64,000 nucleotides of DNA, from the NCBI GenBank assembly GCA_964628585.1, contig CAZVMH010000002.1, forward strand, positions 33,751 to 97,750. Reading direction: 5' to 3'. The notes under the pieces are model-generated. The model searched no databases and was not told where the DNA came from. It saw only the letters and a program-made list of their open reading frames with translations. This DNA is from an uncultured Candidatus Saccharibacteria bacterium. GTDB lineage: Bacteria > Patescibacteriota > UBA1384 > XYA2-FULL-43-10 > 1-14-0-10-43-13. Position numbers and translations under genes: made by a program. Positions 15,645 through 56,718 of the stretch are shown one piece after another; position 1 is the stretch's first letter; each line of letters opens with the position of its first letter.

Positions 15645-15781
15645 TTTGTAAAGCATGAAGTTTATAAAATAAGTCATCAGTTACTTATTATTTGCGGAAT
15701 ATTGAATTGTTTAATATAATAGAACTAATGCACATTACACGCAATTTTTGCTGTATTTGAATCGCTATTTAAGTGAGGGAA

Positions 15782-17701
15782 ATGAAAAAATTGTCGTTGA
15801 CAGATATTCTAAAAACACGGACCAAGGTCAAGGTGATCGGCTTGCTTTTGGTATTTCTCTTAGCAACGCTGTGTTGGCAGTTTGTTATATCAAAAAATCC
15901 AAAAAAAAGTAGCGCTGCCACAACAATAAGTAGCAGCAAAATAGTTGGCTCTAGCAAGGAGTACGACGGTCAGGATTTAATTATCAGCGGAGCCTCGACA
16001 GTTGTTGTTCTTGACGGGGAACACAATTTTTCTTCGTTAACTATTGAAAACGGTGCTACTTTGACTCATACCACTGTTAGTCCCGAAGGCAAGATTAGTT
16101 ACAAGGATAAATTTGCTGTTCGTTGGACGGGGTACATTAAAGTGCCGATAAATACAGACTTAAGGATTGATACACACAGTGATGCTTATAACGATTTCCA
16201 ATTTGGGATAAAGGAAGTTGGCAACTCAGCATATTTAAAATCTACCCCTGGCTGGACGAAGGAGGCATATTCAACCGGTCATTTGGGCAATGCTACTGTA
16301 AAGATATACCAGATTGAGATAGACTATAAGCATCTTTTTCAAATGAAAAAATATTATTCAGAAGGGATAAAGCTTAGTTATCACGACAACGCCAACGGAA
16401 CGGTGCGTTTAGTTGAGGCAAGCATGCTTTGCCAGGACGCGAGTTGTAGCCAGACGGGGGGGCTGGCCGGAGAGTATTATGCATTTACAACTCTTGCGCT
16501 ACAAAATAGTGCGAACCCAATTGTTGATAGCAACGAACCATTTTCTAAATATGGTTGGTTGGTTAAAACTCGAACAGATGCTCAAGTAAATTTTGACTGG
16601 AGCGCTATTGCTCCGCTTGTTTTTGAAGAGGAGGGCGGGCTAAAATTAATGGTTACCAACGCGTTTAATTTAGACAGTGGCGGCAAAATCGACGTTTCAG
16701 GTAAGGGTTATGCTGGGGGAGATTTCAATGATTTGAATAGCAATAATAACTCTCCGGCGTACGGGCCCGGAGCCGGGCAGGGCCTGTATTTGAACCCTAC
16801 TCAACAAAAACCAGGAGATGGTTCCGGTGCCGGTTACGGGGGGGCTGGCTCGTTAGGAGATAGAGACAGGGACAATAATCCTGTAGGAGGCACATATCCT
16901 AATCCGTTTGATCAGTATACTACCTATCTTGATTATGGTTCTGGAGGAGGAGGAGGATATGATGGAGGACCTACAAATGAGTCCAAGGGTAGCGGCGGTA
17001 ATGGTGGTGGACTTGTTTATATTAAAGCTTCGGCCATAAGAATTCTATCTAACCAGTCATCTATTACCGCGGACGGACAGAGAAGCAATATTCATCTATG
17101 GGAAGATGATAACTGTGCCAGTGGTGGTGGCGGATCGGGTGGCACAATCTGGCTGGCCTCTAATAACATTAGTTTTCCAGCAGGAGGCTCTCCATTTAAC
17201 ATATTTGGAGCTTTTGGTGCGAAAGATGGGAGGGCAGAAGTAGGTTCTTTGTCAATTTTCGCCCAGATATCGAGTGATATCGTAAATCTTTCAGTTGCTG
17301 GGGGAAGGCCAGCCGATAGGAATGGTAACTTTTGTACTGGCGGTCAATGCGGTGGCGGTGGCGGTGGCGGAAGAATAATACTTGGTATCTACAATAATTA
17401 TAGTGTACAGAAATCCTTATCACCCATTAGCAGAACAGGTGTTAGTCCTGCTACAAATTTTAACCCTTACACTTTGCAAAAAGGGGACAAGATTGGAGTA
17501 ACACTTAAAATTGGAGGTAGTGCTACTAATTTAATTATAGATGACAACTGGTTAGCAACAAGTAATTTAACTCCGAATTATATTTGTGAACCGGTATCAG
17601 ATTCAGGTCCTCTTGATCCTCTTGCTTGGAATACCAATCCGTTAATTTGGAAGAGCATAAGTGGCGGTAGTGAAATTTATTACGAATGCATAGTAAAATA
17701 A
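15782..17701 (+). CDS. N-terminally anchored large surface protein: PA14 domain plus Gly-rich beta-solenoid-like repeats plus a conserved Cys-containing C-terminal domain
   Basis: TM VIGLLLVFLLATLCWQFVI. PA14 signature 'FAVRWTGYIKVP...LRIDTHSDAYNDFQFGI'. Repeats GSGGGGGYDGG, ASGGGGSGGTIW, GGQCGGGGGGGRIILG. The C-terminal ~110 aa are shared with 17711..19234. ATG 15782 preferred over GTG 15773 (RBS GAGGGAA). Confidence 0.65.
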   Translation: MKKLSLTDILKTRTKVKVIGLLLVFLLATLCWQFVISKNPKKSSAATTISSSKIVGSSKEYDGQDLIISGASTVVVLDGEHNFSSLTIENGATLTHTTVSPEGKISYKDKFAVRWTGYIKVPINTDLRIDTHSDAYNDFQFGIKEVGNSAYLKSTPGWTKEAYSTGHLGNATVKIYQIEIDYKHLFQMKKYYSEGIKLSYHDNANGTVRLVEASMLCQDASCSQTGGLAGEYYAFTTLALQNSANPIVDSNEPFSKYGWLVKTRTDAQVNFDWSAIAPLVFEEEGGLKLMVTNAFNLDSGGKIDVSGKGYAGGDFNDLNSNNNSPAYGPGAGQGLYLNPTQQKPGDGSGAGYGGAGSLGDRDRDNNPVGGTYPNPFDQYTTYLDYGSGGGGGYDGGPTNESKGSGGNGGGLVYIKASAIRILSNQSSITADGQRSNIHLWEDDNCASGGGGSGGTIWLASNNISFPAGGSPFNIFGAFGAKDGRAEVGSLSIFAQISSDIVNLSVAGGRPADRNGNFCTGGQCGGGGGGGRIILGIYNNYSVQKSLSPISRTGVSPATNFNPYTLQKGDKIGVTLKIGGSATNLIIDDNWLATSNLTPNYICEPVSDSGPLDPLAWNTNPLIWKSISGGSEIYYECIVK

Positions 17702-17710
17702 AGGATTAAT

Positions 17711-19234
17711 TTGTCAAAAATTTCATTCGGAAAAATACTTCAAAGGAAACAAAGAACAAAGGTAATAACTATAGTAATCACTACATTGCTTTTGGTTTTT
17801 ATAGGAGGCTATTTTATATCAAAAAGTCCAAGTTTAACTCATGCGGCCTCATACTATAATTCGGGGACAAATGTTTTGAATATTGATGATGTTTCTTGTA
17901 CAGCAACGCTAACTCTATATGGGGCAGGCGTTCCCAATGGAGGGACCGGTGATAGTGATGATTCTTTGCCACAAAGAATTGTAGTTACTGGCGGAACGTG
18001 TGGCACCATATCGACTGAAGTGAATGGGACCACTTTACCATCAAATGTTAGTGTTGTTATTGCCAATAAAGAAGTAAAGATGTTTACTAATCCTGGAGTC
18101 CCATTTCAAGCAAAGAATATTACTATTAATAATGGAGGTGTTTTAACTCACGACTTATTAATTGCTACAACCGATTTTAATCCTGCTGCACCAACATTTG
18201 CTTTGAATCTTAATGGTCAAAGAAAAAAAGTTGATTTGGATATTCTCTATACTGGTGCAGGAACGGGGAATTTAACTATTACAGGAAATGGAAAAATTAA
18301 CGTTGATGGTAAGGGCTACCCAGGGCGAGATGGTAGTGGATATGGGCCAGGATTTAGTCTTTCCAATAGTGGTTATAGCGGGGGTGCTGGTTATGGAGGG
18401 GCGGGAGGAGATGCTAAACAAAACGGAAGCATTGGTGGTGTTGCTTATCCCTCGATTGCGACTGCTTCACAATTAACAGAGTTATTGCCGGGATCAAGTT
18501 CCGGTTCTGATGATGGTGCTAACGGAGCGAGTGGAGGAGGAATTATACAACTTAGAATTGGGGGACAACTAACCATTGGCTTAAACGGTCTAATATCGTC
18601 AAATGGTAATAATGGATCAGATTTGTGGTTTAATCATGGAAGCGGAGGAGGATCGGGAGGAAGCATAAAGATAACTTTTTTGGCCAATCAAGTTCAATCG
18701 CCTAGTGTAAATGTAAGTTGGGGAGACAAAAGTGGCAACGGGCAAGACGGGGCTGCTGGTACGGTGTATATTAGCGGCGTTGTTCTAGCTGGTAATGCTC
18801 CTGACAGAATACAAGCCAAAGGCGGTGATGTTGCTGTTTTGTCCGATTCGGGTGGTGGTGGAGGCGGAAGGATTGCGCTTTTTGGTGTAGATTCTCCAGG
18901 CACTTTAAGTGCCAATATAACAAAAACATTAACAGCTGTTGAAAGAAATGGCTTGCCAGATACAAGTTTTAATCCTTATGCTTTGCAGAAGGGCGATAAA
19001 ATAAAAATCACTCTGACAGTATCGGGTATAAAAACATTTCCCTATATACTAGAAGATCCGTGGTTGAAAACAATAAACAATACTAAAATATGTACGCCAA
19101 TAAATGGTACGTATGCTGGATTGGGGAATCCATTTTTAGACACATCGGACTCTCAGAATAAAAAAATAGTCTGGACATTTATAAGCACGGACCCGTCTTC
19201 TCCAATTGTTGAATATCAATGTTTGGTTAATTAA
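17711..19234 (+). CDS. N-terminally anchored Gly-rich beta-solenoid-like surface protein; paralog of the upstream gene (shared C-terminal domain)
   Basis: TM VITIVITTLLLVFIGGYFI. Repeats GSGGGSGGSIKITF, SGGGGGGRIALFG. C-terminus 'FNPYALQKGDKIKITLTV...EYQCLVN' aligns with 'FNPYTLQKGDKIGVTLKI...YYECIVK' of the previous protein. TTG start with an AAGGA RBS. Confidence 0.6.
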   Translation: MSKISFGKILQRKQRTKVITIVITTLLLVFIGGYFISKSPSLTHAASYYNSGTNVLNIDDVSCTATLTLYGAGVPNGGTGDSDDSLPQRIVVTGGTCGTISTEVNGTTLPSNVSVVIANKEVKMFTNPGVPFQAKNITINNGGVLTHDLLIATTDFNPAAPTFALNLNGQRKKVDLDILYTGAGTGNLTITGNGKINVDGKGYPGRDGSGYGPGFSLSNSGYSGGAGYGGAGGDAKQNGSIGGVAYPSIATASQLTELLPGSSSGSDDGANGASGGGIIQLRIGGQLTIGLNGLISSNGNNGSDLWFNHGSGGGSGGSIKITFLANQVQSPSVNVSWGDKSGNGQDGAAGTVYISGVVLAGNAPDRIQAKGGDVAVLSDSGGGGGGRIALFGVDSPGTLSANITKTLTAVERNGLPDTSFNPYALQKGDKIKITLTVSGIKTFPYILEDPWLKTINNTKICTPINGTYAGLGNPFLDTSDSQNKKIVWTFISTDPSSPIVEYQCLVN

Positions 19235-19244
19235 AGAAGAAACA

Positions 19245-21170
19245 ATGGTTAAAATTATTCGTAAAATATCATTATCATTATTACTCCTAGGTTTACTTTT
19301 TTCCTATTCAGAAGCAGCTGATCCTGCTTTGCCGGAAGTAATGGTGGGACAACCTAGGGTTTGGTATGGGGCAGCAGCTCCCTACACGTATGTTTACGGC
19401 GGTTTTTCTGGTAGCGAAGCAGTTTATAACTATCAGAACGATCCTGGCCAAACAATGGGGGAGAGGTTAGCCCCAAGTTTGAGTTTAAGTGGGACAACTA
19501 ACAGTTATATTGATGTAGGAACTGGTCCTGTTATTACAGGACAGGGTGATTTTTCGGTTTCTCTTTGGTTTAAAAGAAACGGACCCAATCAAGCAAATGA
19601 TTGGCAAATGCTTGCGACCCAAATTGGCATTCCTCACATGTCAAATTTTAAATTACAATTTAATCATACTACTAATAAAATACACTTTAGCATTTTCGGC
19701 ACTTCCGATGGAGTTTCTTGTGGTGGTGCTGGAATACCTGAATTTGAAGTGATATCAAGTACTTCCATAAACGGAACAGACACAAAATGGCATCATGTAG
19801 TTGCTCAAAGAGTTAATCAGGGAGGAGGAGTAACGAAAGGTCAACTCTGGCAAGATAATATAAAAGTGGCAGAATCAGGGGCATCAACCGGTATTGTTTA
19901 TTTGAACACTCCCACTCCAACTTGTTCTGGATATGTTGATGCGACAAAGAGTAGGGTTGGTATTGGTTCTACTCCAGAATCGGTAAGAAGTGGTTCTAAT
20001 CCCGCAAACTCTTTTAAGGGTAATATTGATGAAACAAGAATATATACAAAATCTTTAACCTCTACAGAAATTTCTCGGTTGTATAAGGGGACAGAAACAG
20101 CAGAGGACAATTTGTCGTCAAATGGTCTCAGAGCCTATTGGAAATTTAATGAGGGCGCAGGATCGCAAGTCTTAGATTCATCTGGTAATAACTATACTGG
20201 TAATGCGATCAATACTACATGGAATGCCAATGAAGGTGCTTCGCCTGTTGATTCTACTAAATATGATAACATGGGCTATGATTTATTTGGATTTGATACA
20301 ACTGCCTTGGCTGATTGCATAAATGGGATAATTTTAGGACGAGACAGGTGTTTTGTCTCAAATTCTTCGATGAGTAATATTGTGGTTATGAATAGTCGAA
20401 CATATATTAATGATAATCCAGCTACAGAGGTGGCAGCACTTTTGTCTCCACCGAAGCCATTAATAGCGGGAGATGCCTATTTAGGTGCCCTTCTTGATCC
20501 AAATAACTTTGCTTATTGGGGAAAGAATTTGACTGAAAGAAGAAGTGCGGGTACTAGTCCAAATGCATATTGGGGGATAGGATCGTACGCTAACATATTG
20601 GCGAGCGATATACCAAAATATGAAGAAAAAATTAATATTGCTTTAAAAAGTGCCAAATCAATAACTTCGTTACCGAACTCAATGGGCCTTCAGGGTAGCG
20701 GTGATATGTCTGATATTTCAAGCGAAGCTGACAAATATCCCAATGGTAAGGTTTGGTCCATGAGCGCGCCTGGAGGCCAAACGAATTTTGGAAGCCCTAG
20801 AACATATATAGGAAAGGGCACACTGATTATCAAAAATAATGTTTGTTTTGGCTATGCTGCTCCAAACTGTAATGCGTCAAATTATACTTGGAAAAAAAGA
20901 GTGGATGGGAACACAAATGATTATCAAATGGGCATTATTGTTCAGGGGAATGTAAACATTGCAAGTGGTAGCACAATTGAGGCAGCAATATTTTGTACCG
21001 GGACTATGACAGTTGGTGATAACGTTACATTAAGGGGATCTTTTGTAGCACAGCAGTTCTTGTTTAGTGGTACTGGAAGTGGTACAAAATTTATTTATGA
21101 TGAGAGTTTGAATAAAAATACTCCACCGATATTCGGTGAGTTGAATATGCCGAATCCGACAGAAAATTAA
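19245..21170 (+). CDS. Secreted LamG/concanavalin-A-like lectin-domain protein with a large C-terminal region
   Basis: Signal peptide ISLSLLLLGLLFSYSEA. Laminin-G-3-like signature 'GDFSVSLWFKRNG...WHHVVAQR...FKGNIDETRIYTKSLTSTEISRLYKG'. ATG 19245 with an AAGAAGAAA RBS. Confidence 0.65.
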   Translation: MVKIIRKISLSLLLLGLLFSYSEAADPALPEVMVGQPRVWYGAAAPYTYVYGGFSGSEAVYNYQNDPGQTMGERLAPSLSLSGTTNSYIDVGTGPVITGQGDFSVSLWFKRNGPNQANDWQMLATQIGIPHMSNFKLQFNHTTNKIHFSIFGTSDGVSCGGAGIPEFEVISSTSINGTDTKWHHVVAQRVNQGGGVTKGQLWQDNIKVAESGASTGIVYLNTPTPTCSGYVDATKSRVGIGSTPESVRSGSNPANSFKGNIDETRIYTKSLTSTEISRLYKGTETAEDNLSSNGLRAYWKFNEGAGSQVLDSSGNNYTGNAINTTWNANEGASPVDSTKYDNMGYDLFGFDTTALADCINGIILGRDRCFVSNSSMSNIVVMNSRTYINDNPATEVAALLSPPKPLIAGDAYLGALLDPNNFAYWGKNLTERRSAGTSPNAYWGIGSYANILASDIPKYEEKINIALKSAKSITSLPNSMGLQGSGDMSDISSEADKYPNGKVWSMSAPGGQTNFGSPRTYIGKGTLIIKNNVCFGYAAPNCNASNYTWKKRVDGNTNDYQMGIIVQGNVNIASGSTIEAAIFCTGTMTVGDNVTLRGSFVAQQFLFSGTGSGTKFIYDESLNKNTPPIFGELNMPNPTEN

Positions 21171-21230: not shown

Positions 21231-22028
21231 ATGAATCCAGATGACTCAAATACTGGTACAATGGAGTCTCAACTTGCGGGTTCTCCTTTTGTAAGTCCAC
21301 AAAGGATTGAAACGGAAACTGCACCGAGCTCTGCTTCTGAAAGTTCAGCACTAAAACATCAAGAATTTCGGCCAGAGGCTGACCTGTCTCATCAAGCCAA
21401 GACGGATCATCTCGGTGCTGAAAAAAAGCACGATGAGAGCAATCTTATTCATTTTGAGGATCATAAATCTTTCAATTTTGGTTTGGCTTTGGCTTGGATT
21501 ATCGCCCTGCTTTCAATTACAGCAACATTATATTTTTGGTGGCTTAATCGCAACTTAACAGATGCACTGGAAGACAAAAAAGAAAAAAGAACAGCTGTAG
21601 TCTCTCAGCTAGAATCACCGGGCAATAAAGAGGTGGAGACAGAGGCTAACAATTTTAAAGCTTCAGTTGCTGCATTAACTGCAGCAAAAACAGCTCGCAG
21701 TCCTGTCGGAACTTTTTTACCAGATTTTTACACAAAAATTGACAATGATGTAAAAATTACCTCAATGTCTATGAGTGCCGGAGGCGCCCTAAGTATTGCT
21801 GGGACCACTGCAAATTACAGAACAATCGCCGATCAGGTCATGGCTCTAAAAAGCTGGTCTCAGCTTTCCGATGTCGATCTAACTTCTTCTTCTTACTCTG
21901 TTGATGCCGAAAACATAAAAAGCGCGGCTAGTTTTAGTATAACGGCAAAAGTAAAAAGCAGTAGTACTACAACTACCGGCGCATCTGCTACTTCTGTTTC
22001 CGGTACCACAACAGGAGGGGCACAATGA
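21231..22028 (+). CDS. PilN-like type IV pilus assembly protein (bitopic, long N-terminal cytoplasmic low-complexity tail)
   Basis: Single TM FGLALAWIIALLSITATLYFWWL followed by a periplasmic coiled region; position immediately upstream of a PilO-like gene; RBS GGGAGGGTGA. Confidence 0.5.
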   Translation: MNPDDSNTGTMESQLAGSPFVSPQRIETETAPSSASESSALKHQEFRPEADLSHQAKTDHLGAEKKHDESNLIHFEDHKSFNFGLALAWIIALLSITATLYFWWLNRNLTDALEDKKEKRTAVVSQLESPGNKEVETEANNFKASVAALTAAKTARSPVGTFLPDFYTKIDNDVKITSMSMSAGGALSIAGTTANYRTIADQVMALKSWSQLSDVDLTSSSYSVDAENIKSAASFSITAKVKSSSTTTTGASATSVSGTTTGGAQ

Positions 22029-22645
22029 CCAAAAAATCAAACAGCACTTTCTATGGAGGAGTTACAGTTTTAATAGTGATATGTTCATTCATTTATTCAT
22101 GGAAGTTTTTGGTGCCAAAATACAATACTCAAAAAGCCGAAATAAAAGTTGTTGAGGATGAGTTAAAAATGGCTACAAATAAACTTGAATCTATCAAAAC
22201 TACCAAAGTCACACTCGAGAGTTTAAAACCAATTACAAATCAGCTTTTTATAGCGGTGCCGGGCGACAAAGATTCGCCAAATTTGATTACCGAGTTAGAA
22301 GCTTTGGCTTTGAAGAACAAAATAGTAATTCCTTCGATTCAAATTGCAGAAGGATCAATCGCTAATTCTGGTGGTGAGACAGCTACAGCCTCCTCTGGTG
22401 CAAATGCCGTTTCAATTAGTTTTGCAGTCAGCGGTTCTTTCGAAAATTTAAATTCTTTAATTGTTTCGATTGAAAAAGACATCCGCTTTATGAATATTAA
22501 GAGTTTTTCTTTTTCGGCAAACGAAAAAGATTCAAATCAAATGTCTCTAACACTTCAAATTGAAGCATATAGGCGGTCAGCATCGGCTGCTACAGCTACT
22601 TCTAGTAGAGTGCCAAGCGCAACTACAAATGCAACAGGAGAATAA
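22025..22645 (+). CDS. PilO-like type IV pilus assembly protein
   Basis: N-terminal TM, coiled-coil, then 'alpha/beta' periplasmic region; start overlaps the upstream stop (ATGA). Confidence 0.5.
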   Translation: MTKKSNSTFYGGVTVLIVICSFIYSWKFLVPKYNTQKAEIKVVEDELKMATNKLESIKTTKVTLESLKPITNQLFIAVPGDKDSPNLITELEALALKNKIVIPSIQIAEGSIANSGGETATASSGANAVSISFAVSGSFENLNSLIVSIEKDIRFMNIKSFSFSANEKDSNQMSLTLQIEAYRRSASAATATSSRVPSATTNATGE

Positions 22646-22647
22646 TT

Positions 22648-22908
22648 ATGAATAAAAATAGCGTCGGAGTTATTGTCAGTTTAGTCTTTGCTCTAATCAC
22701 GGCCGGTTCTTTTTATTGGCTTTGGATTGAGGCAAATAAGCCTGTTTCAGTGCCAACTTCAAAAGCAAAAAACTATACCGCGGTGGAAATTGAAGCGGTC
22801 AAAACCCAAGCCAATGATATTTTGAGTTCGCTTGAAAAAAATAGTGATATTCCTCTTACCACTCCAACTGCCAAGATGGGCAGAGTCAATCCATTCATAG
22901 GACTATAA
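22648..22908 (+). CDS. Small bitopic protein (86 aa), possible PilP-like pilus assembly component
   Basis: Single N-terminal TM; position in the pilMNOP-like block. Confidence 0.4.
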   Translation: MNKNSVGVIVSLVFALITAGSFYWLWIEANKPVSVPTSKAKNYTAVEIEAVKTQANDILSSLEKNSDIPLTTPTAKMGRVNPFIGL

Positions 22909-23003
22909 ATTTACAATAGCTCATAGCTCATATATCATATATTTCTCATTTATTAATTGATCAATAAAAAAATAATTATTTTAGATGAGTTATGAGCTAT
23001 GGG
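22909..23003. repeat. Inverted CTCATA-type repeats (CTCATAGCTCATA ... TATGAGCTATGG) flanking an AT-rich spacer
   Basis: Read directly; the same CTCATA(A/G)CTCATA family recurs at about 30537, 33421 and 34281. Confidence 0.6.
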
Positions 23004-24234
23004 ATATATTAAATTAGATGTGGTAAATGGAGAACAACCAACGGTGGGGAAGAACAATAATCGTCTAGAAAACTTAGCCAAAAGGCCTTGGACAACCCAG
23101 TCAATACTGGATGTTTTTGTATTACAGGGGCTAATTGAATATTCTGATGCTGAAAAAATTGGGCGTAATTTTAAAACCAATAATCAGATTGAAAATTTTC
23201 TTATTAAAAATAAAATTGTCACGCCCGATACAGTAAACAAGGCCTACAGTATTTTATTAAAATTACCCTTTGTAGGGCTTAAAAATGTTGAAATTCCGGC
23301 TGAATGTAAGCTGGTCGTTACCAAAGAAATTGCTAGAAAATATGAAATTATTCCTTTTGATATAGATAGAAACACATTACGGATCGCAATAGCCAAGCCC
23401 TCAGCTCTTATGCTTGGATATTCCTCGGGGCTTTTGAGCGTTTTTAACTCCAAAAATATTAAAGTCGAGGTATTTATTACTGGTAAAAGCGATTTTTTAG
23501 AGAGTATTAAGCAATATGAAAAAGAAAATTCTCTTTTGCTCAAAAAGGGTAGTTACCCCACTATATTTTTACGCAACTACCGAATGTCACGATTTTTTTT
23601 AGAAAAATTACCGCTTCAATTTGTTAAAAAATATCGAATAGTTGTTTTTGGTGAAAATATTAGTGGTGATTATATGATAGCTTGTGAAGAGCCAAATTCT
23701 CCCTTGACAAAGAAAGTCCTTCAAGCAATTTCTCGTGAAAACAAAATAAATATTGAAGTTTTTGCTGCTTCAAAAGATGATTTTGATTATATTACCAATC
23801 ATTGGTATGATATAGGCAACTACAACTTGGAAGAAGTCGAGGAGGAGGTAGGAGGGCAATCTGGAAAAATAGAATCTTCGGGTGTGTTTGATCTGGGAGA
23901 ATTTTTGGGATTAAATAAAATTCCAGCAAAACCAAAAATTACTATAGATTCAATTTCACAGATCGAAGAAACCAATAATTCAGAGTTACCAATAATTGAT
24001 TTATCGAGCATTAAGATTGATAAGTACTTTTTGAAGATTTTGCCGAAGGAGTTATCACAAAAATATCGTGTGGTTGTCTTTGGGTCAGAGAAAAATGGAG
24101 CGCTGAAGCTAGCCACAGACGCACCAAATTTGCCCAATATGCAGAAGACAGTAGATTATATTAAAAGTCAACATGCAATAAAATTATATCAGTGTTTAAC
24201 AAAAGATTTTGACAACTTTATCAAACAAATTTAA
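22999..24234 (+). CDS. Standalone protein composed of three GspE_N (T2SSE_N/PilB-N-terminal-like) domains, no ATPase domain
   Basis: Three repeats of the 'LP...A(R)KY(E/R)IIPF/VVVFG......L.IA...P' pattern (e.g. 'IARKYEIIPFDIDRNTLRIAIAKP', 'VKKYRIVVFGENISGDYMIACEEP', 'SQKYRVVVFGSEKNGALKLATDAP'). Confidence 0.55.
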   Translation: MGYIKLDVVNGEQPTVGKNNNRLENLAKRPWTTQSILDVFVLQGLIEYSDAEKIGRNFKTNNQIENFLIKNKIVTPDTVNKAYSILLKLPFVGLKNVEIPAECKLVVTKEIARKYEIIPFDIDRNTLRIAIAKPSALMLGYSSGLLSVFNSKNIKVEVFITGKSDFLESIKQYEKENSLLLKKGSYPTIFLRNYRMSRFFLEKLPLQFVKKYRIVVFGENISGDYMIACEEPNSPLTKKVLQAISRENKINIEVFAASKDDFDYITNHWYDIGNYNLEEVEEEVGGQSGKIESSGVFDLGEFLGLNKIPAKPKITIDSISQIEETNNSELPIIDLSSIKIDKYFLKILPKELSQKYRVVVFGSEKNGALKLATDAPNLPNMQKTVDYIKSQHAIKLYQCLTKDFDNFIKQI

Positions 24235-24239
24235 TAAAC

Positions 24240-25790
24240 ATGAGTGACGATCAACCAAAAATAAATACAGTGGCTCCAATCCAAGCAAAACCCACAATAT
24301 CATTAGGTGGTTTTTTCGATAAAGCTTTTTCCGCTCAAAGTAATCAATCAACGGATCAGAAAACAAATAAGAGCACACCAATCGAACCTGCCGCGAATCA
24401 GTCCCAGAACCCACCTGTAGCTCCTACTTCGGCTGGACAGGATAATATTCCCCAAACACAGGAAAAAGAGATCGATTCAGAGTTTGACAAGAAAAAAGAT
24501 ATTAGTCAATCAACATCTCTTGACAATAATGATATTGGTAGCTTGGTTACAGGAAATATTTTAAATATTAATCAACTTGCTGAGATTATTAAAGAAGGAT
24601 ATGTTCCTAAAATAGTGGCGGCAATTATTAACTTTGCTCTCAATAATCGTGCTTCCGACGTTCACATTGAACCCCAGTCGAAATCGATGCGCATTCGGAC
24701 AAGAGTCGATGGTATTTTAACCGATATTGCAAAACTATCACTTGAAATGCATCCGCCCATAGTTAGCCGAATAAAAATATTGGCCAAGTTAAAGATTGAC
24801 GAAAACAGAATTCCGCAAGATGGTCGTTTTGATGTTACTTTCTCGGACAGACAAACAGATGTTCGTGTCTCAACTTTGCCAACCGTTCATGGCGAGAAGG
24901 CAGTTATGAGAATTTTAGATAAAAATCAAAAGATATTGACGCTTGAAGATTTGGGTCTTAAGGGGGAGGCTTTTGACAGAACGGTTGAGGCGATTTCAAA
25001 GCCTTGGGGGGTTATTTTATCCACAGGCCCTACTGGTAGTGGTAAATCTACTACTCTTAATGCAATAATTGCACGATTAAATCAACCGGGGGTAAACATT
25101 TGTACATTGGAAGACCCGGTTGAGTATGAAACACCGGGAGTGAACCAGTCACAAGTGAAACCAGATATCGGTTTTACTTTTGCTACTGGTTTGCGTAGTT
25201 TGTTGCGTCAGGACCCAAATATTATTATGGTTGGTGAGATTCGTGACGGCGAAACAGCCGGTATGGCAACTCACGCCGCTTTAACAGGTCACCTGGTTTT
25301 AACAACGCTCCATACCAACGATACTGCCGGAGCTTTACCCAGATTGATTAATATGGGAATTGAGCCATTTTTAATAACATCTTCAATGAATTTAGTTATT
25401 GCTCAGAGACTGGTTCGTCTAATTTGTCCAAAATGCAAAGAAGAAATGAAAGTGCCACCAAAATTACTGGAAGAGATTGAAAATGTTTTAAAAACAATAC
25501 CACAAACAAATAAAAAAGACTTGGCCAGAATTCCGGCCCAAAGAAAGTTTTATTATGGACGAGGTTGCAGTGAATGCGTACAGGGCTACAGGGGAAGATT
25601 GGGGTTGTTTGAGGTAATGAGCATGACAGCTGAAATTGAAGATTTTGCAATTGCTCACAAATCGTCTAGTGATATAAAAGCCGCCTCAATTAGAGCAGGC
25701 ATGATTACAATGAAACAAGACGGGGTTTTAAAAGTGTTAGAAGGATTAACCACGCTTGACGAAGTGTTCCAAGCAACAATGGACAACTAA
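24240..25790 (+). CDS. pilB: Type IV pilus assembly ATPase PilB (GspE family) with a C-terminal tetracysteine Zn motif
   Basis: Walker A GPTGSGKSTTL, Asp box, His box; 'RIPQDGRFDV'; CPKC...CSEC. Confidence 0.9.
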   Translation: MSDDQPKINTVAPIQAKPTISLGGFFDKAFSAQSNQSTDQKTNKSTPIEPAANQSQNPPVAPTSAGQDNIPQTQEKEIDSEFDKKKDISQSTSLDNNDIGSLVTGNILNINQLAEIIKEGYVPKIVAAIINFALNNRASDVHIEPQSKSMRIRTRVDGILTDIAKLSLEMHPPIVSRIKILAKLKIDENRIPQDGRFDVTFSDRQTDVRVSTLPTVHGEKAVMRILDKNQKILTLEDLGLKGEAFDRTVEAISKPWGVILSTGPTGSGKSTTLNAIIARLNQPGVNICTLEDPVEYETPGVNQSQVKPDIGFTFATGLRSLLRQDPNIIMVGEIRDGETAGMATHAALTGHLVLTTLHTNDTAGALPRLINMGIEPFLITSSMNLVIAQRLVRLICPKCKEEMKVPPKLLEEIENVLKTIPQTNKKDLARIPAQRKFYYGRGCSECVQGYRGRLGLFEVMSMTAEIEDFAIAHKSSSDIKAASIRAGMITMKQDGVLKVLEGLTTLDEVFQATMDN

Positions 25791-25945: not shown

Positions 25946-27013
25946 GTGGAAGCAAAAACAAGTGGTGAGATCAATAAATATCTCGATTTTGCAATTGAAA
26001 AAATTGCCTCTGATATTCATATAATTTCCGGAATTCCAATAGTAATTCGTATAGACGGGAAACTTTTTGCGGTTCCTGGCTCCAACCCAAACACTCCAGA
26101 AAAAATAAAAGAACTCTTAGACGGTTTTGTCCCCAGAGAACTGGGCGAGTTATTTAAAATCAAAAAAGAGCTCGATTTTTCTTTTGGTTATAAAGAAATG
26201 CGCTTTCGTGTAAATATATATATGGAAAAGAGCGTTCCGGCCGCTTCTTTGCGACTAATACCCAAAGCAATAAGAGGATTTAAAGAACTTGGTTTGCCAC
26301 CAATACTGGAAAAATTTACCGAACATAATCAGGGCTTTGTGGTTTTGGCTGGCCCAACCGGTTCTGGCAAATCGACAACTTTGGCCGCGATTGTGGATAG
26401 AATTAATGAAAACTCTTCAAAACATATTGTTACAATCGAAGATCCTATTGAGTATGTCTTTGAACATAAAAAAAGTATTATTTCACAGAGAGAAGTTGGA
26501 TACGATACAGAATCTTTTCCAAAAGCGTTGCGTTCGGCTTTGCGAGAGGATCCAGACGTTGTTTACATTGGTGAGATGCGAGACTTAGAGACAACAGAGG
26601 CCGCCTTAACTATTGCCGAGACCGGTCACTTGGTCTTTACGACTTTGCATACCAATTCAGCCGCTCAAACGGCCGATCGTATTGTTAATATTTTTCCAAC
26701 TCATTTACGACAACAGGTAGCGAGTCAACTTGCCTCTGTTCTTCTCGGTGTTGTGTCGCAAAGATTAATTCCAAAGGTTGGTGGAGGAAGAGTCTTGGCA
26801 GCGGAAATTTTGATTGGCAACTCTGCCGTTAAATCGTTAATTCGAGAAGAAAAATCATATCAAATTCCAAATGTTATTCAAACATCGGCAGCAGAGGGGA
26901 TGATTTCTTTAGACAAAGTTCTGGCCGAATATGTTTCAAGGGGGGAGATTACACTAGAAGACGCCCTGTCCTGGTCGCTTGATCCAAAGAGCTTTAAAAT
27001 GATGGTATATTAA
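25946..27013 (+). CDS. pilT: Twitching motility/retraction ATPase PilT
   Basis: Walker A AGPTGSGKSTTLAA; 'GNSAVKSLIREEK' (AIRNLIRE-like motif); ~350 aa without an N-terminal GspE_N domain; GTG start with a GGAGGG RBS. Confidence 0.85.
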   Translation: MEAKTSGEINKYLDFAIEKIASDIHIISGIPIVIRIDGKLFAVPGSNPNTPEKIKELLDGFVPRELGELFKIKKELDFSFGYKEMRFRVNIYMEKSVPAASLRLIPKAIRGFKELGLPPILEKFTEHNQGFVVLAGPTGSGKSTTLAAIVDRINENSSKHIVTIEDPIEYVFEHKKSIISQREVGYDTESFPKALRSALREDPDVVYIGEMRDLETTEAALTIAETGHLVFTTLHTNSAAQTADRIVNIFPTHLRQQVASQLASVLLGVVSQRLIPKVGGGRVLAAEILIGNSAVKSLIREEKSYQIPNVIQTSAAEGMISLDKVLAEYVSRGEITLEDALSWSLDPKSFKMMVY

Positions 27014-27102: not shown

Positions 27103-28308
27103 ATGAGTAAATTTCTTTACAAAGCAAAGGGGCCTAACGGTAGAACCGTAACTGGAACCGTTGAGGCGAAAAACGAAATCGAGGCTGAGGCACTACTTAC
27201 TCAGCATAGCTTAGTGGCGGAGGAAGTTGTAGCAGTAAACGAATCGCCACTCGATTTTTTGAGGAATATTTTTTCGCGCATAAATGATAAAGACAGAGCA
27301 ATTTTTGCTCGTCAGCTTTCTACTATGGTTTCGGCTGGCTTAACGCTTCCAAAATCGATTAAAGTTACCTCGAATCAGGCCAGAACAGAGAAACTTCGAA
27401 ATATATATATGGATTTGTACAAGCAGTTGGAAGAGGGTAAAACTTTTTCTTCTGCTTTAAGAGATCATCCGGAAGCGTTTAACGATGTGTATGTTGCGGT
27501 TGTGGCAGCCGGTGAACAAACAGGTAAGGTAGATGTGGTTTTAAAACAGTTGGCAACTCAATTGGAGAACAATAACAATTTTGTAGGCAGAGTTCGCGGG
27601 GCGCTATATTATCCCGGTTTTATTATCGTAGCTATGGTGGCAATAGCAATCTATATGCTAGTAAAAGTTATTCCTGCTCTTAAAGGAATTTTTGATCAAG
27701 AAGGCGAGCAACTGCCAATTGCTACTCGCATTCTTTTGGCTATGTCAGATGCGGTTCAGGTCTATTGGTGGGCGGTTATTATGGTAATAATCGGGATAGT
27801 TATATTTTTGCGTTTCTTTTTTGAATCGCAGTCCGGCGCAGCAGTCAAAGATAAGTTGGCGATAAAAACCCCTGTCATAAAAAAAATGTTTGAGGGAATG
27901 TATATGTACCGAGTAACCGAGATTATGGCAATGCTTCTCGGCGCTGGTGTTCCACTTTTGAATACAATTAAAATTGCCGCCACAACAGTAAACAACGGTG
28001 TTTATGAAGAAAGCCTGCTCAATGTAGCTAAATATGTTGAGCGAGGCGTGCCACTTTCAGTTCAGCTGATGAAAGAGCCGGTTTTTCCGCCAATTTTTGG
28101 CCAGATGGCCTCTGTGGGTGAGGAAACAGGCCAACTCGATAAAGTTTTGAAAAAAGTTTCGGATTACTACCAAGAGACAACAGACCAGATGATTAAAACT
28201 CTTTCAACTTTAATCGAACCGGCAATTTTGCTCTTGGTTGGAGCCGCCGTTGCCTTTATTGTTTTTGCGGTTTTGGTACCTATATATAACATTGCCCAGA
28301 TAGAGTGA
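27103..28308 (+). CDS. pilC: Type IV pilus platform protein PilC (GspF family)
   Basis: Two GspF repeats with three TM helices; 'RQLSTMVSAGLTLPKSI' and the second repeat 'EPAILLLVG'. Confidence 0.85.
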   Translation: MSKFLYKAKGPNGRTVTGTVEAKNEIEAEALLTQHSLVAEEVVAVNESPLDFLRNIFSRINDKDRAIFARQLSTMVSAGLTLPKSIKVTSNQARTEKLRNIYMDLYKQLEEGKTFSSALRDHPEAFNDVYVAVVAAGEQTGKVDVVLKQLATQLENNNNFVGRVRGALYYPGFIIVAMVAIAIYMLVKVIPALKGIFDQEGEQLPIATRILLAMSDAVQVYWWAVIMVIIGIVIFLRFFFESQSGAAVKDKLAIKTPVIKKMFEGMYMYRVTEIMAMLLGAGVPLLNTIKIAATTVNNGVYEESLLNVAKYVERGVPLSVQLMKEPVFPPIFGQMASVGEETGQLDKVLKKVSDYYQETTDQMIKTLSTLIEPAILLLVGAAVAFIVFAVLVPIYNIAQIE

Positions 28309-30106: not shown

Positions 30107-30478
30107 ATGCAGAATGATAAGTCAAAGTTCAAAAAAGAATTTATTAGACGGTTAATGGTATTTTCAGTCAATTTAGTAAAATTTTGTTCCAAATTGCGTC
30201 AGAAAAGAGATTATTGGGTAATAGCAGATCAGTTATTGGATTCTGGCACGTCGATTGGAAGCAATTCAGTAGAGGCGAAAGCCTCATCATCCCGCAGAGA
30301 ATATATTAAATTTTTTGAAATAGCCTTAAAAAGTGCCAACGAAACGCTTTACTGGCTGATCATAGTAAAAGAATCGGTTCTAGAGTTAAAAACAGAATCA
30401 GAAAAGCTCTATAACGAATGTGAAGAGCTAACAAAAATATTGTGTTCGAGTGTATTAACCCTGAAGGGAAAGAAATAG
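30107..30478 (+). CDS. Four-helix-bundle protein (23S rRNA intervening-sequence-type, TIGR02436-like)
   Basis: Signature 'DQLLDSGTSIGSNSVEA...REYIKFFEIALKSANETLYWL'. Confidence 0.7.
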   Translation: MQNDKSKFKKEFIRRLMVFSVNLVKFCSKLRQKRDYWVIADQLLDSGTSIGSNSVEAKASSSRREYIKFFEIALKSANETLYWLIIVKESVLELKTESEKLYNECEELTKILCSSVLTLKGKK

Positions 30479-32549: not shown

Positions 32550-33416
32550 TTGATGCAAGAAAAACTAATAATGAAAATAATTAGCAAAAAATTTAGTAAA
32601 GAGCTTGTCCCGAAAATGTCGAGGGGATTTGGCCTTTTAGAAGTAATGATATCTGGAGCAGTGATTATTATTATTCTAGGGTCTTTAGTTTTAGTTGCCC
32701 ATGCCGCTATAAACAACAATCAATATATGCAAAAACGAGCAGAAGCAACATTCTTAGCCCAAGAGGGTCTTGAAATGGTCAGGCAGATTAGAGATTCTAA
32801 CTGGATAGATCGAAGTGCCAGTAATTGTACAAGTGATTGTACTAGTAGCAATCCGCAAACCAATTATGGCAAAACTAACTGGGACTCAGTTCAATTATAC
32901 CCTGAATCGGGTTTTGTTAATGGAAAATATATTTATAATCCATCGCTTTTTGTAGATCAGGGCTGTTATAGAAAAAATAAGTATTTTATGACCTATCCCG
33001 GGCTTGATGATCAACAACAACAAAGGCGTTTTAGTCTACAAACTCTAAATGATTCTATAAATCCTAACAATATTAATAATTGTAGAAAATTGATTTACCC
33101 GGATAATAATGCGTCCCCAAGCGAAACCAATACCGAAAAAATATCAGTCTATCCGAATAACATGTCTTTTGATGGTGTTCCGGACCCAGATCCAAAACGA
33201 GCCAATAAACAAGATTATGAAGCTCCTGCGAATGTATTTTTTAGAGTTTTTTTCATTGAACGAGATTTAGGTGATCTTTTGCCAGACGTGTCCGGAGATA
33301 TTCACCCAGAGGTCAATGCTTATAAAGTTACGGTTTATATTGGGTTCAATTTTAATGGACAAAATAAAATTATTGAGTCGAGCGAGATTTTAACCAATTG
33401 GAGACCAGATTTCTAA
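32550..33416 (+). CDS. Minor pilin (PilV/PilW-like) with a long leader
   Basis: 'SRGFGLLEVMISGAVIIIILGSLVLV'; the start is uncertain (an alternative ATG lies at 32613). Confidence 0.6.
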   Translation: MMQEKLIMKIISKKFSKELVPKMSRGFGLLEVMISGAVIIIILGSLVLVAHAAINNNQYMQKRAEATFLAQEGLEMVRQIRDSNWIDRSASNCTSDCTSSNPQTNYGKTNWDSVQLYPESGFVNGKYIYNPSLFVDQGCYRKNKYFMTYPGLDDQQQQRRFSLQTLNDSINPNNINNCRKLIYPDNNASPSETNTEKISVYPNNMSFDGVPDPDPKRANKQDYEAPANVFFRVFFIERDLGDLLPDVSGDIHPEVNAYKVTVYIGFNFNGQNKIIESSEILTNWRPDF

Positions 33417-33441: not shown

Positions 33442-34281
33442 ATGAATAGCAAGCAATATAAAAAAGGGTTTACTTTAATGGAGGTGCTAGTTGCAACCAT
33501 GATTTTTGTATCGATTATGGTAATTGCTACGGGCGTAATTGGCCAAGCAAGTTCTTATAGTGGAAAAATTAAAAAACTCAGAGAAACATCCGCTGAAGCT
33601 CGTCGTTTATCTGACATGATTACAAGAGATATAAGAGAGGCAAATGCACCAGTAGTTTTGGATTCGGAATTTTTTCGAGATAATGGGGACCCATCTGATC
33701 TTTGTATCGAATTAGTTGACGAAGGAAACACAGTTACCTTTAAAAGTGGCTTGGCTATTCTTTCTTGGAGGAGGGCTGTTGATGGATATACTAAGTATTC
33801 AGAAGCTCAGAGTCAGTGCATAGATGAAGCTTATAGAGTGCCTGACGGTCTTTTTTATGGCAACGGCCATGGTCTATATGACGCTCGCATGCTTGTTGTT
33901 GGACTAAAGAATAAAACACGGGTTTACGCTACAGCTCAAGATACGAACGCGAACCCAAGAGTCCATCGGGTTTATATGAAGGAATTTACTCAGGGCAAAT
34001 TGAGCGTAACCGACATTAATAGTGTGGTTGAAAGTGCAAATCTAATATCAAATCCCAATTATGGTGCCATAGTTGGTTTTGGTGGTTATGCACCACCATC
34101 TTCGACAGACGGAGCGGGTAAACCATTGCCTCGTGATATTAAGCAACAGCCGGTTATAAGGTTTCTTGTTACTGTGCAGTCAAAAGACTATATTCACAAC
34201 GACATCGTTTCTCCCAAGGTTCATAAAGGAGAACAAGCAGTAATTCGATCTATGGCAACTTCCAGAAATTATGATATATAA
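33442..34281 (+). CDS. Minor pilin (PilW/PilX-like)
   Basis: 'KKGFTLMEVLVATMIFVSIMVIATGVIG'. Confidence 0.7.
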   Translation: MNSKQYKKGFTLMEVLVATMIFVSIMVIATGVIGQASSYSGKIKKLRETSAEARRLSDMITRDIREANAPVVLDSEFFRDNGDPSDLCIELVDEGNTVTFKSGLAILSWRRAVDGYTKYSEAQSQCIDEAYRVPDGLFYGNGHGLYDARMLVVGLKNKTRVYATAQDTNANPRVHRVYMKEFTQGKLSVTDINSVVESANLISNPNYGAIVGFGGYAPPSSTDGAGKPLPRDIKQQPVIRFLVTVQSKDYIHNDIVSPKVHKGEQAVIRSMATSRNYDI

Positions 34282-39925: not shown

Positions 39926-41005
39926 GTGCAGACAAATTATTTACTTCCATTTGTGGCGCATGAGAAAATTGGCAGCCAGACCTTAAAAAAGGCGCTGGCT
40001 CCTTTTGAAGATGATGCAGAAAAGCTTTGGCGGGTAAGTAATAAAGAGATATCGCAAAAACTGGATCAGAAAATTGCGAAACTAATTATCGAGGCAAAAG
40101 ATAAATATAACCCAGATGAAGAACTGGAAAAACTTAAAAAGTATGATGTCGGCTACATAACATTAAATGACAGGGAATATCCGCCGTTATTGAAAGAGAT
40201 TCACGATTATCCGGTCGTTCTTTTTATTCGGGGCAATATTAAATCTTTAAAAATGCCAGCGCTGGCCATAGTTGGAAGTCGTAAATTTTCTAATTATGGT
40301 CAGAAAGTGGCTTACAATTTATCAAGGGCATGCGCTGAAGCTGGGATAGCAATTATCTCCGGCTTAGCATTGGGAATTGATGCGTCTGCTCACAGAGCGG
40401 CGCTGGATGCAGATGGCATTACTATCGGCGTATTGGGTTGCGGATTAGATAGGGTTTATCCGGTCAGCAATTTTCAATTGGGGAAAGAAATGATCGAAAA
40501 GGGCGGAGCAATCGTTTCAGAATTTCCGATTGGAACACCACCGATGAAGTACAACTTTCCAGCCCGCAATCGCATCATAGCAGGACTTTCAGCTGGTACA
40601 CTTGTAGTTGAGGCGGCAGAACAGTCTGGGGCCTTAATTACAGCTTATCAAGCGCTGGAATACAACAGAGAGGTCTTTGCAGTGCCTGGAAACATCGATT
40701 CAATACAATCGGCCGGAACCAACAAATTAATTCAAAACGGAGCGAAGATGGTACTATCGCCCGAAGACATCTTTGCGGAACTAAATATCGAGGTGAAAAA
40801 ATCGGAAACGAAAGCCAAAGAAATGTTTCCAGAATCAGAAGATGAGAAAAAGGTTGTGGTAACACTCTCGTCTGGAAAAAAATTGGTTGATGAGATAATT
40901 GCCGAAACCGGACTTAATGTAATTGCTATTAACACATCCCTAACAACTTTAGAGATGAAAGGTGTAGTTGAAAATTTAGGTGGAGGTAGATTCAAGCTTT
41001 GTTGA
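39926..41005 (+). CDS. dprA: DNA processing protein DprA (Smf)
   Basis: Rossmann core 'LAIVGSRKFSNYGQKVAYNLSRACAEAGIAIISGLALGIDASAHRAAL'; GTG start. Confidence 0.85.
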   Translation: MQTNYLLPFVAHEKIGSQTLKKALAPFEDDAEKLWRVSNKEISQKLDQKIAKLIIEAKDKYNPDEELEKLKKYDVGYITLNDREYPPLLKEIHDYPVVLFIRGNIKSLKMPALAIVGSRKFSNYGQKVAYNLSRACAEAGIAIISGLALGIDASAHRAALDADGITIGVLGCGLDRVYPVSNFQLGKEMIEKGGAIVSEFPIGTPPMKYNFPARNRIIAGLSAGTLVVEAAEQSGALITAYQALEYNREVFAVPGNIDSIQSAGTNKLIQNGAKMVLSPEDIFAELNIEVKKSETKAKEMFPESEDEKKVVVTLSSGKKLVDEIIAETGLNVIAINTSLTTLEMKGVVENLGGGRFKLC

Positions 41006-41083
41006 AATTTTATAATTTTGATTTATGATATAGTATCTGATAAATTCTTAAGTGTTTACTTAAAACAAAAAATTGGAGGAGAA

Positions 41084-43276: not shown

Positions 43277-43293
43277 GTAAATATTATTTATTA

Positions 43294-43896
43294 TTGATGC
43301 TACCCAAATCCATACAAAACTTGATTGACGAGTTATCAAAACTGCCAGGTGTAGGTCCAAAAACGGCAGCCAGACTTACTTTTTATCTGCTTTCCAAACC
43401 TCAATATGATATTGATAATATTGGAAAAGCATTTTTAGAATTAAACAATAATATTAAAAAATGTAAAAATTGTTTCAACATTACTGATAAAGAAGTTTGT
43501 TTTGTGTGTGAAAACGAAAAAAGAAATCAGTCGTTGGTTGCGGTTGTAGAAGAACCACTTGATGTTATAGCACTAGAAAAATCTTACGGTTACGACGGAG
43601 TTTATCATGTTCTTGGAGGTTCAATTTCTCCAATTGAAGGCATTGGGCCTGAAAACTTAAGGATACAAGAACTAATTGACAGAATTATTAAAGGAGAAAT
43701 TGAAGAAATTATTTTAGCAACGAATCCCGATCTAGAAGGTGAAGCGACGGCAGCTTATATTAAAGAGAAAATTACGAATACTGGCAAGACAATAAGAGTT
43801 ACTAGAATTGCTCGGGGCTTACCAGTTGGAGGAGAGCTCGAATATGCTGACGAAGTCACTCTAAAGCGATCTATGGAGGGTAGAAGGGACTATTAA
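43294..43896 (+). CDS. recR: Recombination protein RecR
   Basis: HhH 'LPGVGPKTAARL', C4 zinc finger CKNC...CFVC, Toprim, Walker B-like. Confidence 0.9.
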   Translation: MMLPKSIQNLIDELSKLPGVGPKTAARLTFYLLSKPQYDIDNIGKAFLELNNNIKKCKNCFNITDKEVCFVCENEKRNQSLVAVVEEPLDVIALEKSYGYDGVYHVLGGSISPIEGIGPENLRIQELIDRIIKGEIEEIILATNPDLEGEATAAYIKEKITNTGKTIRVTRIARGLPVGGELEYADEVTLKRSMEGRRDY

Positions 43897-56632: not shown

Positions 56633-56718
56633 TTTATTTGACAACATATTTAGATATGTTGGATAATATAAATGTCAATATTTACTAATTTTTGTTTTGT
56701 TATTCTTTGGAGGGTTAT

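Follow-up and report, generated by a model that had tools for sequence, protein, structure and literature searches.

Detachment of the PilB N-terminal MshEN region as a separate, conserved gene in a Berkelbacteria-like type IV pilus locus

The type IV pilus locus described here raises the question of why domains typical of the N-terminus of the extension ATPase PilB should be encoded by a gene of their own. The locus lies in a stretch of 64,000 nucleotides from an uncultured Candidatus Saccharibacteria bacterium (assembly GCA_964628585.1, contig CAZVMH010000002.1, positions 33,751 to 97,750), called the window below, in which an open reading frame (ORF) of 411 open codons, terminated by TAA TAA, precedes pilB. 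A first inspection of the sequence (the original prediction) had recognized in its product only three PilB/GspE N-terminal-type domains with a shared motif, a detached module directly before pilB that, it was suggested, may substitute for the actin-like protein PilM. The pilB ATG at 24240 is indeed located just 5 nt past this gene, in another reading frame. We propose that the product, referred to as the MshEN protein, corresponds to the N-terminal GSPII/MshEN region of PilB, detached by one fission in a Berkelbacteria-like subclade and acting in trans with PilB; we would give this reading a probability of about 75%.

The only Pfam family detected in the protein is PF05157 (MshEN), whose hidden Markov model (HMM) matches three separate stretches with 76.8 bits, well above the cut-off of 23.1 (E 1.3e-21). 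The motif that had first been noticed by eye aligns all three segments (KYEIIPF at residues 114-120, KYRIVVF at 211-217 and KYRVVVF at 355-361), and profile and motif agree that the protein is made up of three such domains. We obtained an AlphaFold2 single-chain model from 20 homologues with a mean predicted local distance difference test (pLDDT) score of 73. In the three folded domains the means over blocks of 10 residues are mostly 80-91, falling to 67-77 at some margins. Three segments score below 50 (residues 1-20, 29-33 and 274-328), and the last of them constitutes a disordered linker. When compared with the PDB using Foldseek, the model matches the N-domain of MshE (5htl_A) with a template modelling (TM) score of 0.81 over 141 residues. 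Further matches include GSPII-A and GSPII-B of PilF, the Xanthomonas PilB N-domain with PilZ, XpsE-N and, as a weaker match, the N1 domain of EpsE in its complex with EpsL (probability 0.87-0.97 over ~68 residues). The domains are thus predicted to fold as the GspE_N type. By sequence, Thermus PilF (6f8l) ranks first among PDB matches and PilB N-termini come next. A complete MshEN domain, consisting of a four-helix and an alpha/beta subdomain, is present only in the first domain (D1), and the second and third (D2 and D3) correspond to the alpha/beta subdomain alone. A BLAST comparison of the protein with itself revealed no internal repeats and a profile comparison was needed; with hhalign, D2 aligned with the alpha/beta subdomain of D1 with a probability of 96.9% (E 1.6e-10).

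The adjoining PilB is matched by Pfam T2SSE over residues 119-510 only. It carries a Walker A motif (GPTGSGKS) at residue 263 and CxxC motifs at 396 and 443, pairs typical of extension ATPases. On the NCBIfam model TIGR02538, which has 564 positions, the MshEN protein spans positions 4-140 and the window PilB positions 123-563. Because this coverage is complementary, the two adjacent proteins tile one PilB. Jointly they possess the features of a PilB, that is a GSPII N-domain, the N2D, the C-terminal domain (CTD), the Walker A motif and the tetracysteine; in the window these are distributed over two polypeptides by a stop, the 5-nt gap and a new ATG in the other frame. The window PilB is missing exactly the region that the MshEN gene encodes. 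Judged from these alignments, the MshEN protein is the N-terminal region of PilB itself, split off as a gene of its own.

A search of 5.8 billion proteins returned about 20 standalone homologues of 373-484 residues with 38-85% identity, together with two proteins in which the N-terminal domains run on into the T2SSE ATPase (P0020, from Berkelbacteria, and P0022; P and L numbers are our handles for proteins and loci). With an exhaustive search of representatives we also obtained P0029, a complete fused protein of 840 residues, and the more distant two-domain fused PilBs P0033 and P0037. By looking up genomic contexts and scanning species-representative genomes we collected 40 related loci, 34 of which are distinct; two loci truncated by contig ends were left unclassified. 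All come from metagenome-assembled genomes (MAGs) of Patescibacteria, several of them labelled Candidatus Berkelbacteria, and share a common order: a LamG-type secreted protein, pilN, pilO, a membrane protein gene of ~85 codons, either MshEN plus pilB or one long pilB, pilT, pilC, pilins and pilD. In 27 distinct loci the PilB is fused, a single ORF of ~750-920 residues where complete, while seven others (L002, L004, L006, L010, L014, L039 and L040) are split like the window. The D1-D2 region of the fused proteins occupies the same position in the locus and is 36-57% identical to that of the window. In an HMM scan the number of alpha/beta domains was exactly two for every fused protein and exactly three for every split one, D2 being present in all relatives of both kinds. 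A neighbour-joining tree of the PilB ATPase core, and independently one of PilT, groups the split genomes into one clade that is nested within the fused genomes. These trees indicate that the split is derived and arose once, since the nesting is found in both and the fused state also occurs in the more distant proteins.

The junction between the MshEN gene and pilB measures 5 nt in the window, 3 nt in L040, 157 nt in L039 and ~200 nt in L006. Because its length varies between relatives, the two genes are independent cistrons. In L039, an 84%-identical relative, a GC-rich palindromic element of 157 nt (2150-2306) sits exactly between the two genes; it resembles a small mobile or repeat element, and a Y1 transposase gene is found at the end of the same contig. 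Some fused loci deserve separate mention. The PilB of L008 (1384-3910) is broken into two overlapping ORFs within the ATPase core, probably by a frameshift or an assembly error unrelated to the conserved split. One Berkelbacteria MAG contains two different pilB genes of the fused type, one in a complete locus (L030, CAINNR010000019.1) and the other on a 5.3-kb contig that begins at pilB (L011, CAINNR010000003.1); either this genome has two pilus systems or the bin is mixed.

Where does the additional domain of the split proteins come from? D3 aligns with D2 with an E-value of 8.5e-28 and with the alpha/beta subdomain of D1 with one of 4.4e-10. Since D3 is far closer to D2 than to D1, the profile comparisons identify it as a duplicate of D2 that is specific to the split clade. 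In fused PilBs, D1-D2 is carried on a disordered leash of 100-250 residues that contains two consecutive motifs, m1 (~ITLxGhhDShhS, where h is hydrophobic) and m2 (~PxhT(V/I)D(E/S)). The split MshEN proteins retain a degenerate m1 and a well-conserved m2 ahead of D3, and the split PilBs begin with a short spacer followed by the strongly conserved sequence ISLxGFFDxxF, which resembles the m1 of the fused linkers and is called m1' here. The ancestral and still commonest form is a single PilB composed of D1, D2, a long disordered linker with m1 and m2, and the ATPase. In the clade of the window, a segment comprising D2, spacer and m1 would have been tandemly duplicated and placed after m2, after which the second spacer, which separates D3 from m1', would have gained a stop and a new start. 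The duplication would presumably have preceded the fission. The outcome would be a D1-D2-(m1)-m2-D3 protein followed, across a gap of 5 nt, by a co-transcribed m1'-linker-ATPase protein.

The MshEN gene has the properties of a functional gene. Its true start is probably the GTG at 23044, which gives a protein of 396 residues, since the corresponding GTG is the first codon of the 81%-identical homologue of L040, where in-frame stops lie immediately before it; in the window, a GGAG sequence is found 12 nt upstream of the GTG. In comparison with its relatives in L039 and L040, the gene shows 0.09-0.11 nonsynonymous (dN) and ~2 synonymous (dS) substitutions per site; the dN/dS ratios of 0.047-0.049, at the same level as those of the adjoining PilB (0.041-0.056), are approximate because dS is saturated. 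In each folded domain dN is far below dS; with a dN/dS of ~0.05, purifying selection on the gene is strong. A terminator scan of the window revealed no terminator-like site between the MshEN gene and pilB. Upstream of the MshEN gene there is one promoter-like site (10/12, 22910-22938), to which we attach little weight, such counts being not above those of shuffled sequence. The MshEN gene and pilB are presumably co-transcribed.

How might a detached N-terminal region serve the motor? By analogy with characterized systems, its most likely function is to dock or regulate PilB in trans, as a separate module. It would still work with the PilB hexamer and, where the PilN/PilO/PilC platform faces the cytoplasm, would dock the motor or regulate it. 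Thermus PilF binds PilMNO through PilM, and its GSPII-C domain is needed for the stimulation of the ATPase by PilMN (PMC6325625); the N1 domain is assumed to be oriented towards the stator, as an analogy to GspE-GspL suggests (PMC11656802). Because of the long disordered leash in the fused relatives, D1-D2 would be a tethered docking or regulatory head, outside the catalytic ring. A non-covalent link replacing the peptide tether may be formed by D3, and possibly by m1'.

Several points weigh against this interpretation. The association of the MshEN protein with PilB in trans, like its docking role, is one that we infer. The m1 region is not confidently docked on D2 or D3 within the chain (pLDDT 24-38 at residues 280-330 of the AlphaFold2 model). 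The idea that m1 docks onto D2/D3 thus found no support, residues 274-328 lying below 50 throughout, and a link from D3 to m1' is likewise without structural support. A long leash also means that the module may act at a distance from the ATPase ring, and after the fission a role of its own may have evolved. The correlation between D3 and the split amounts to one evolutionary event. Finally PilM, the usual partner of N1 domains, was found neither in the window nor within ~10 kb of the related loci.

This last point requires some comment, as PilM has been reported to be widespread and co-localized with other pilus genes in bacteria of the candidate phyla radiation (CPR) (PMC6744442, PMC11623550, PMC8672522), and a locus without pilM is unusual against this norm. 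Among the window ORFs run through Pfam, which comprise most of those of at least 150 residues and all those of 270-450 residues except the minor-pilin-like 32550-33416 and 33442-34281, we found neither PF11104 nor any other actin-like family. A regular-expression search in six frames detected no actin-type phosphate-1 motif in any window ORF of at least 120 residues. Both searches agree with the original prediction that no actin-like PilM is encoded between the PilN/O genes and pilB. Within ~10 kb of the 34 distinct related loci no PilM-like protein was found, in fused and split loci alike; the unexplained ORFs of 230-520 residues in these regions fell into 15 clusters, whose representatives were run through Pfam and correspond to PilD, a tRNA synthetase, pilins, PSP1, DNA polymerase III delta prime, DinB and several singletons. 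Nor does pilM occur on the contigs of a single-MshEN PilB (P0023) and of a distant PilC (P0288). The PilM-binding motif of PilN reportedly has the consensus INLLP. PilM binds a conserved motif at the N-terminus of PilN (PMC5805733). An alignment of more than 30 PilN orthologues of the group contains no INLLP-type motif but a weak juxtamembrane pattern, hydrophobic-x-x-F/I-x-E/D, just before the membrane helix. The cytoplasmic tail of the window PilN (21231-21500) is unusually long, with ~85 low-complexity residues.

Could the detached triple module have taken over the role of PilM, linking the cytoplasmic tail of PilN to the motor? The lack of a PilM-like gene in the 64-kb window and around the related loci, in a radiation where PilM is otherwise common and co-localized in pilus loci (PMC6744442, PMC11623550), would suit such a substitution, as would the lack of the usual PilM-binding motif in PilN and the resemblance of the alpha/beta subdomain to EpsE-N1, a platform-binding domain. 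However, the MshEN protein has no PilM-type Pfam match (PF11104, PF05134) and its predicted fold is that of MshEN and not actin-like. N1/GSPII domains normally bind PilM or GspL instead of replacing them (PMC6325625, PMC11656802), and a pilM gene could lie elsewhere in the genome, beyond the scanned locus. Moreover, the same domains are part of PilB in 27 fused relatives that are equally devoid of pilM within ~10 kb, which uncouples detachment from absence. Because fused and split loci equally lack a nearby pilM, detachment is not a response to the loss of PilM; the absence of a nearby pilM is a trait of the whole group and unrelated to detachment. We therefore depart here from the original prediction and consider it quite improbable that the module substitutes for PilM. 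A different proposal would apply to the whole Berkelbacteria-like group, fused and split: its pilus would have PilN and PilO and no PilM, and the alpha/beta domains of PilB would dock directly on the PilN tail or on PilC, doing so as a free subunit in the clade of the window. We regard this as rather doubtful. If true, the docking module could be shared, exchanged or titrated apart from the motor, and the group would have a minimal PilM-less stator undescribed so far.

The module might alternatively be a free-standing receptor whose helical subdomain senses cyclic di-guanosine monophosphate (c-di-GMP) or a different small ligand and which controls PilB, PilT or other proteins in trans, a role also proposed for MshEN proteins elsewhere that stand alone or are not ATPases. 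The MshEN fold is known as a receptor that binds c-di-GMP with high affinity, the four-helix subdomain is retained in D1, and this subdomain is the best-conserved part of the family (0.81 compared with 0.59-0.72 in the other domains). There are also weak NCBIfam matches to the MshEN region of NfrB-type glycosyltransferases, and GSPII-B of PilF binds c-di-GMP despite deviations from the motif (PMC11731258). This motif, (R/K/L)LGxx[LVI][LVI]xxG[LVI][LVI]xxxxLxxxLxxQ, occurs in two copies five residues apart, and the backbone amide of its position-3 glycine contacts guanine (PMC11731258). In a motif scan of the whole MshEN protein, however, no match exceeded 5 of the 11 key positions. Read by eye, the helical region at residues 35-58 has ~4/11, the position-3 glycine is missing from both candidate motifs (residues 35-58 and 64-86) and the position-10 glycine from the second. 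Canonical c-di-GMP binding is thus unlikely, since the motif is degenerate and D2 and D3 have no helical subdomain; the match of at most 5/11 led us to discard a canonical c-di-GMP receptor, although the protein may still bind the ligand in a non-canonical way. No GGDEF, EAL or HD-GYP domain was detected among the window ORFs run through Pfam. The fused PilBs share the helical subdomain, so that sensing would not explain the split. Together these observations make a free-standing receptor a quite unlikely role for the MshEN protein. Since the helical subdomain shows the highest conservation despite its degenerate c-di-GMP motifs, it presumably has some conserved partner or ligand. Of the two kinds of interaction initially envisaged for the module, a platform adaptor is plausible, this being the role inferred for N1/GSPII domains generally, whereas c-di-GMP binding has lost ground with the motif not conserved.

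A more trivial explanation is that a PilB has been broken by a frameshift, a nonsense mutation or an assembly error, the MshEN gene being a pseudogenized PilB N-terminus. The two ORFs are adjacent, in different frames and jointly resemble one PilB, and the fused L008 illustrates that a probable frameshift can occur in the ATPase. But the split is kept with intact ORFs in at least seven independent assemblies besides the window, at 37% to 85% protein identity, and these derive from JGI, ENA, Logan and NCBI and not from one erroneous reference. It is accompanied by an extra folded domain and by a conserved new motif at the N-terminus of PilB. Conservation across lineages, the clean double stop, a dN/dS of ~0.05 and spacers that vary in length between relatives led us to reject this explanation, to which we assign a practically negligible probability.

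The detachment of a PilB N-terminal region that would work in trans can be placed among known systems, of which the closest characterized one is PilF of Thermus thermophilus (889 residues; 6f8l, 6ejf, 9g1w, 8pdk), where three GSPII domains, A to C, are fused to the ATPase. The likeness lies in several tandem GSPII/MshEN-type domains serving a type IV pilus extension ATPase, and PilF is the top PDB sequence match; its GSPII-A likewise fails to bind c-di-GMP (PMC11731258). In contrast to PilF, the array of the window is a separate polypeptide, canonical c-di-GMP motifs are not conserved and no PilM was found. PilF has three complete GSPII domains with helical c-di-GMP-type motifs (PMC11731258), whereas the window protein has a helical subdomain in D1 only. 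The number of three domains is convergent, D3 being an independent, recent and clade-specific copy. The fused Berkelbacteria-like PilBs (P0029; L009, L012, L016-L038) have orthologous D1-D2, the same linker motifs and locus and no nearby pilM, but form one polypeptide and lack D3. With the N-domain of Vibrio cholerae MshE (5htl), the prototype c-di-GMP receptor, D1 shares the two-subdomain fold and the Pfam family; the paired 24-residue motifs are degenerate in the window protein, which is not attached to an ATPase. The N1 domain of GspE/EpsE bound to the actin-like domain of GspL/EpsL (2bh1 and 4pht, both Foldseek matches) has the same alpha/beta fold and provides a structural precedent for the docking of a motor on its platform, although no GspL/PilM partner was detected in the window locus, where the domain is threefold and in trans. 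The N-domain of Xanthomonas citri PilB, seen in the PilB-PilZ-FimX complex (7lko), has the same fold and is a hub for regulatory partners; in the window the domain is detached and no PilZ or FimX homologue was found among the ORFs run through Pfam. Standalone MshEN-only sequences are common in databases, as seen in the representative search, where many proteins of 250-400 residues have two MshEN stretches (P0036, P0040, P0045, P0046). We found in the literature no description of a PilB N-terminal array as a separate conserved gene. The split MshEN/PilB is an evolutionary variant of a known machine and not a new type of system.

The GSPII/N1 domain is the least understood part of pilus extension motors. 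What it contributes to catalysis and to extension is little understood, and it is flexible and poorly resolved (PMC11656802). A detached and conserved module represents a natural separation-of-function experiment, as it can be expressed, purified, titrated or deleted without touching the ATPase, and closely related fused and split forms lend themselves to direct comparison. Type IV pili play a central part in the episymbiotic life of Patescibacteria (PMC11623550, PMC6744442), and a locus type without pilM may point to a simplified platform.

Table 1. Features of the pilus locus in the window (positions refer to the window; residue numbers of domains refer to the 411-residue frame)
Feature	Position	Strand	Remarks
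PilN-like	21231..22028	+	~85-aa cytoplasmic low-complexity N-terminus; Pfam PilN E 7.5e-7
PilO-like	22025..22645	+	Pfam PilO E 6.6e-9; weak NCBIfam GspM match
86-aa single-pass membrane protein, no family	22648..22908	+	always between pilO and the MshEN/pilB gene
Standalone gene, three MshEN/GSPII-type domains	22999..24234	+	411 aa; 396 aa from probable start GTG 23044
D1 helical subdomain, aa 31-86	23089..23256	+	AlphaFold2 helices 36-42, 48-57, 61-70, 76-86
D1 alpha/beta subdomain, aa 87-178	23257..23532	+	best Pfam stretch 87-175
D2, alpha/beta only, aa 184-270	23548..23808	+	AlphaFold2 secondary structure; profile comparison
Disordered linker	23809..23982	+	holds degenerate m1 and conserved m2
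m1, degenerate, FDLGEFLGL	23887-23913	+	MshEN protein linker
m2, PKITIDSI, aa 312-319	23932-23955	+	P.LT(V/I)DSI across the family
D3, alpha/beta only, aa 329-411	23983..24231	+	D2 duplicate confined to the split clade
PilB extension ATPase without MshEN, 516 aa	24240..25790	+	low-complexity N-terminus of 105-118 aa, then N2D and CTD
m1', ISLGGFFDKAF, PilB aa 20-30	24297..24329	+	all split PilB N-termini; by-eye alignment
PilT retraction ATPase	25946..27013	+	Pfam T2SSE E 3.4e-47; orthologues 61-75% identical, same position
PilC platform protein	27103..28308	+	Pfam T2SSF E 4.6e-53

Among the neighbouring genes (Table 1), the one for the 86-residue membrane protein merits attention. BLAST detected an orthologue in 36 of the first 38 loci, that is in every locus whose contig reaches this position, and L039 and L040 have genes for 84-85 residues at the same place. 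From this distribution the protein is an uncharacterized core component of this type of pilus locus, whether fused or split. Upstream of pilN, three large Gly-rich secreted proteins of 642, 507 and 654 residues are encoded (15773-21170, + strand), the last of which contains Laminin_G_3 and DUF7305. Most related loci whose contig extends upstream have a LamG-like protein before pilN, which reaches 3440 residues in L001; the Gly-rich/LamG proteins may be pilus-associated adhesins. Between the pilins and pilD, a 123-residue protein of PF05635, the four-helix '23S rRNA intervening sequence' family, is encoded (30107-30478, + strand), and it is kept at the same position in L002 (14144-14515) and L004 (14692-15063).

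Farther downstream, an ORF of 1343 residues (56692-60723, + strand) directly follows the TGT gene and the genes for ribosomal proteins L1, L10 and L12. It has the size of RpoB and lies near the position expected for rpoB but is not RpoB; it has no match among Pfam families or PDB sequences, and its acidic N-terminus looks repeat-like. DprA, topoisomerase I and RecR are encoded (39926-43896, + strand) ~5 kb downstream of the pilus genes, a neighbourhood consistent with an involvement of the pilus in DNA uptake.

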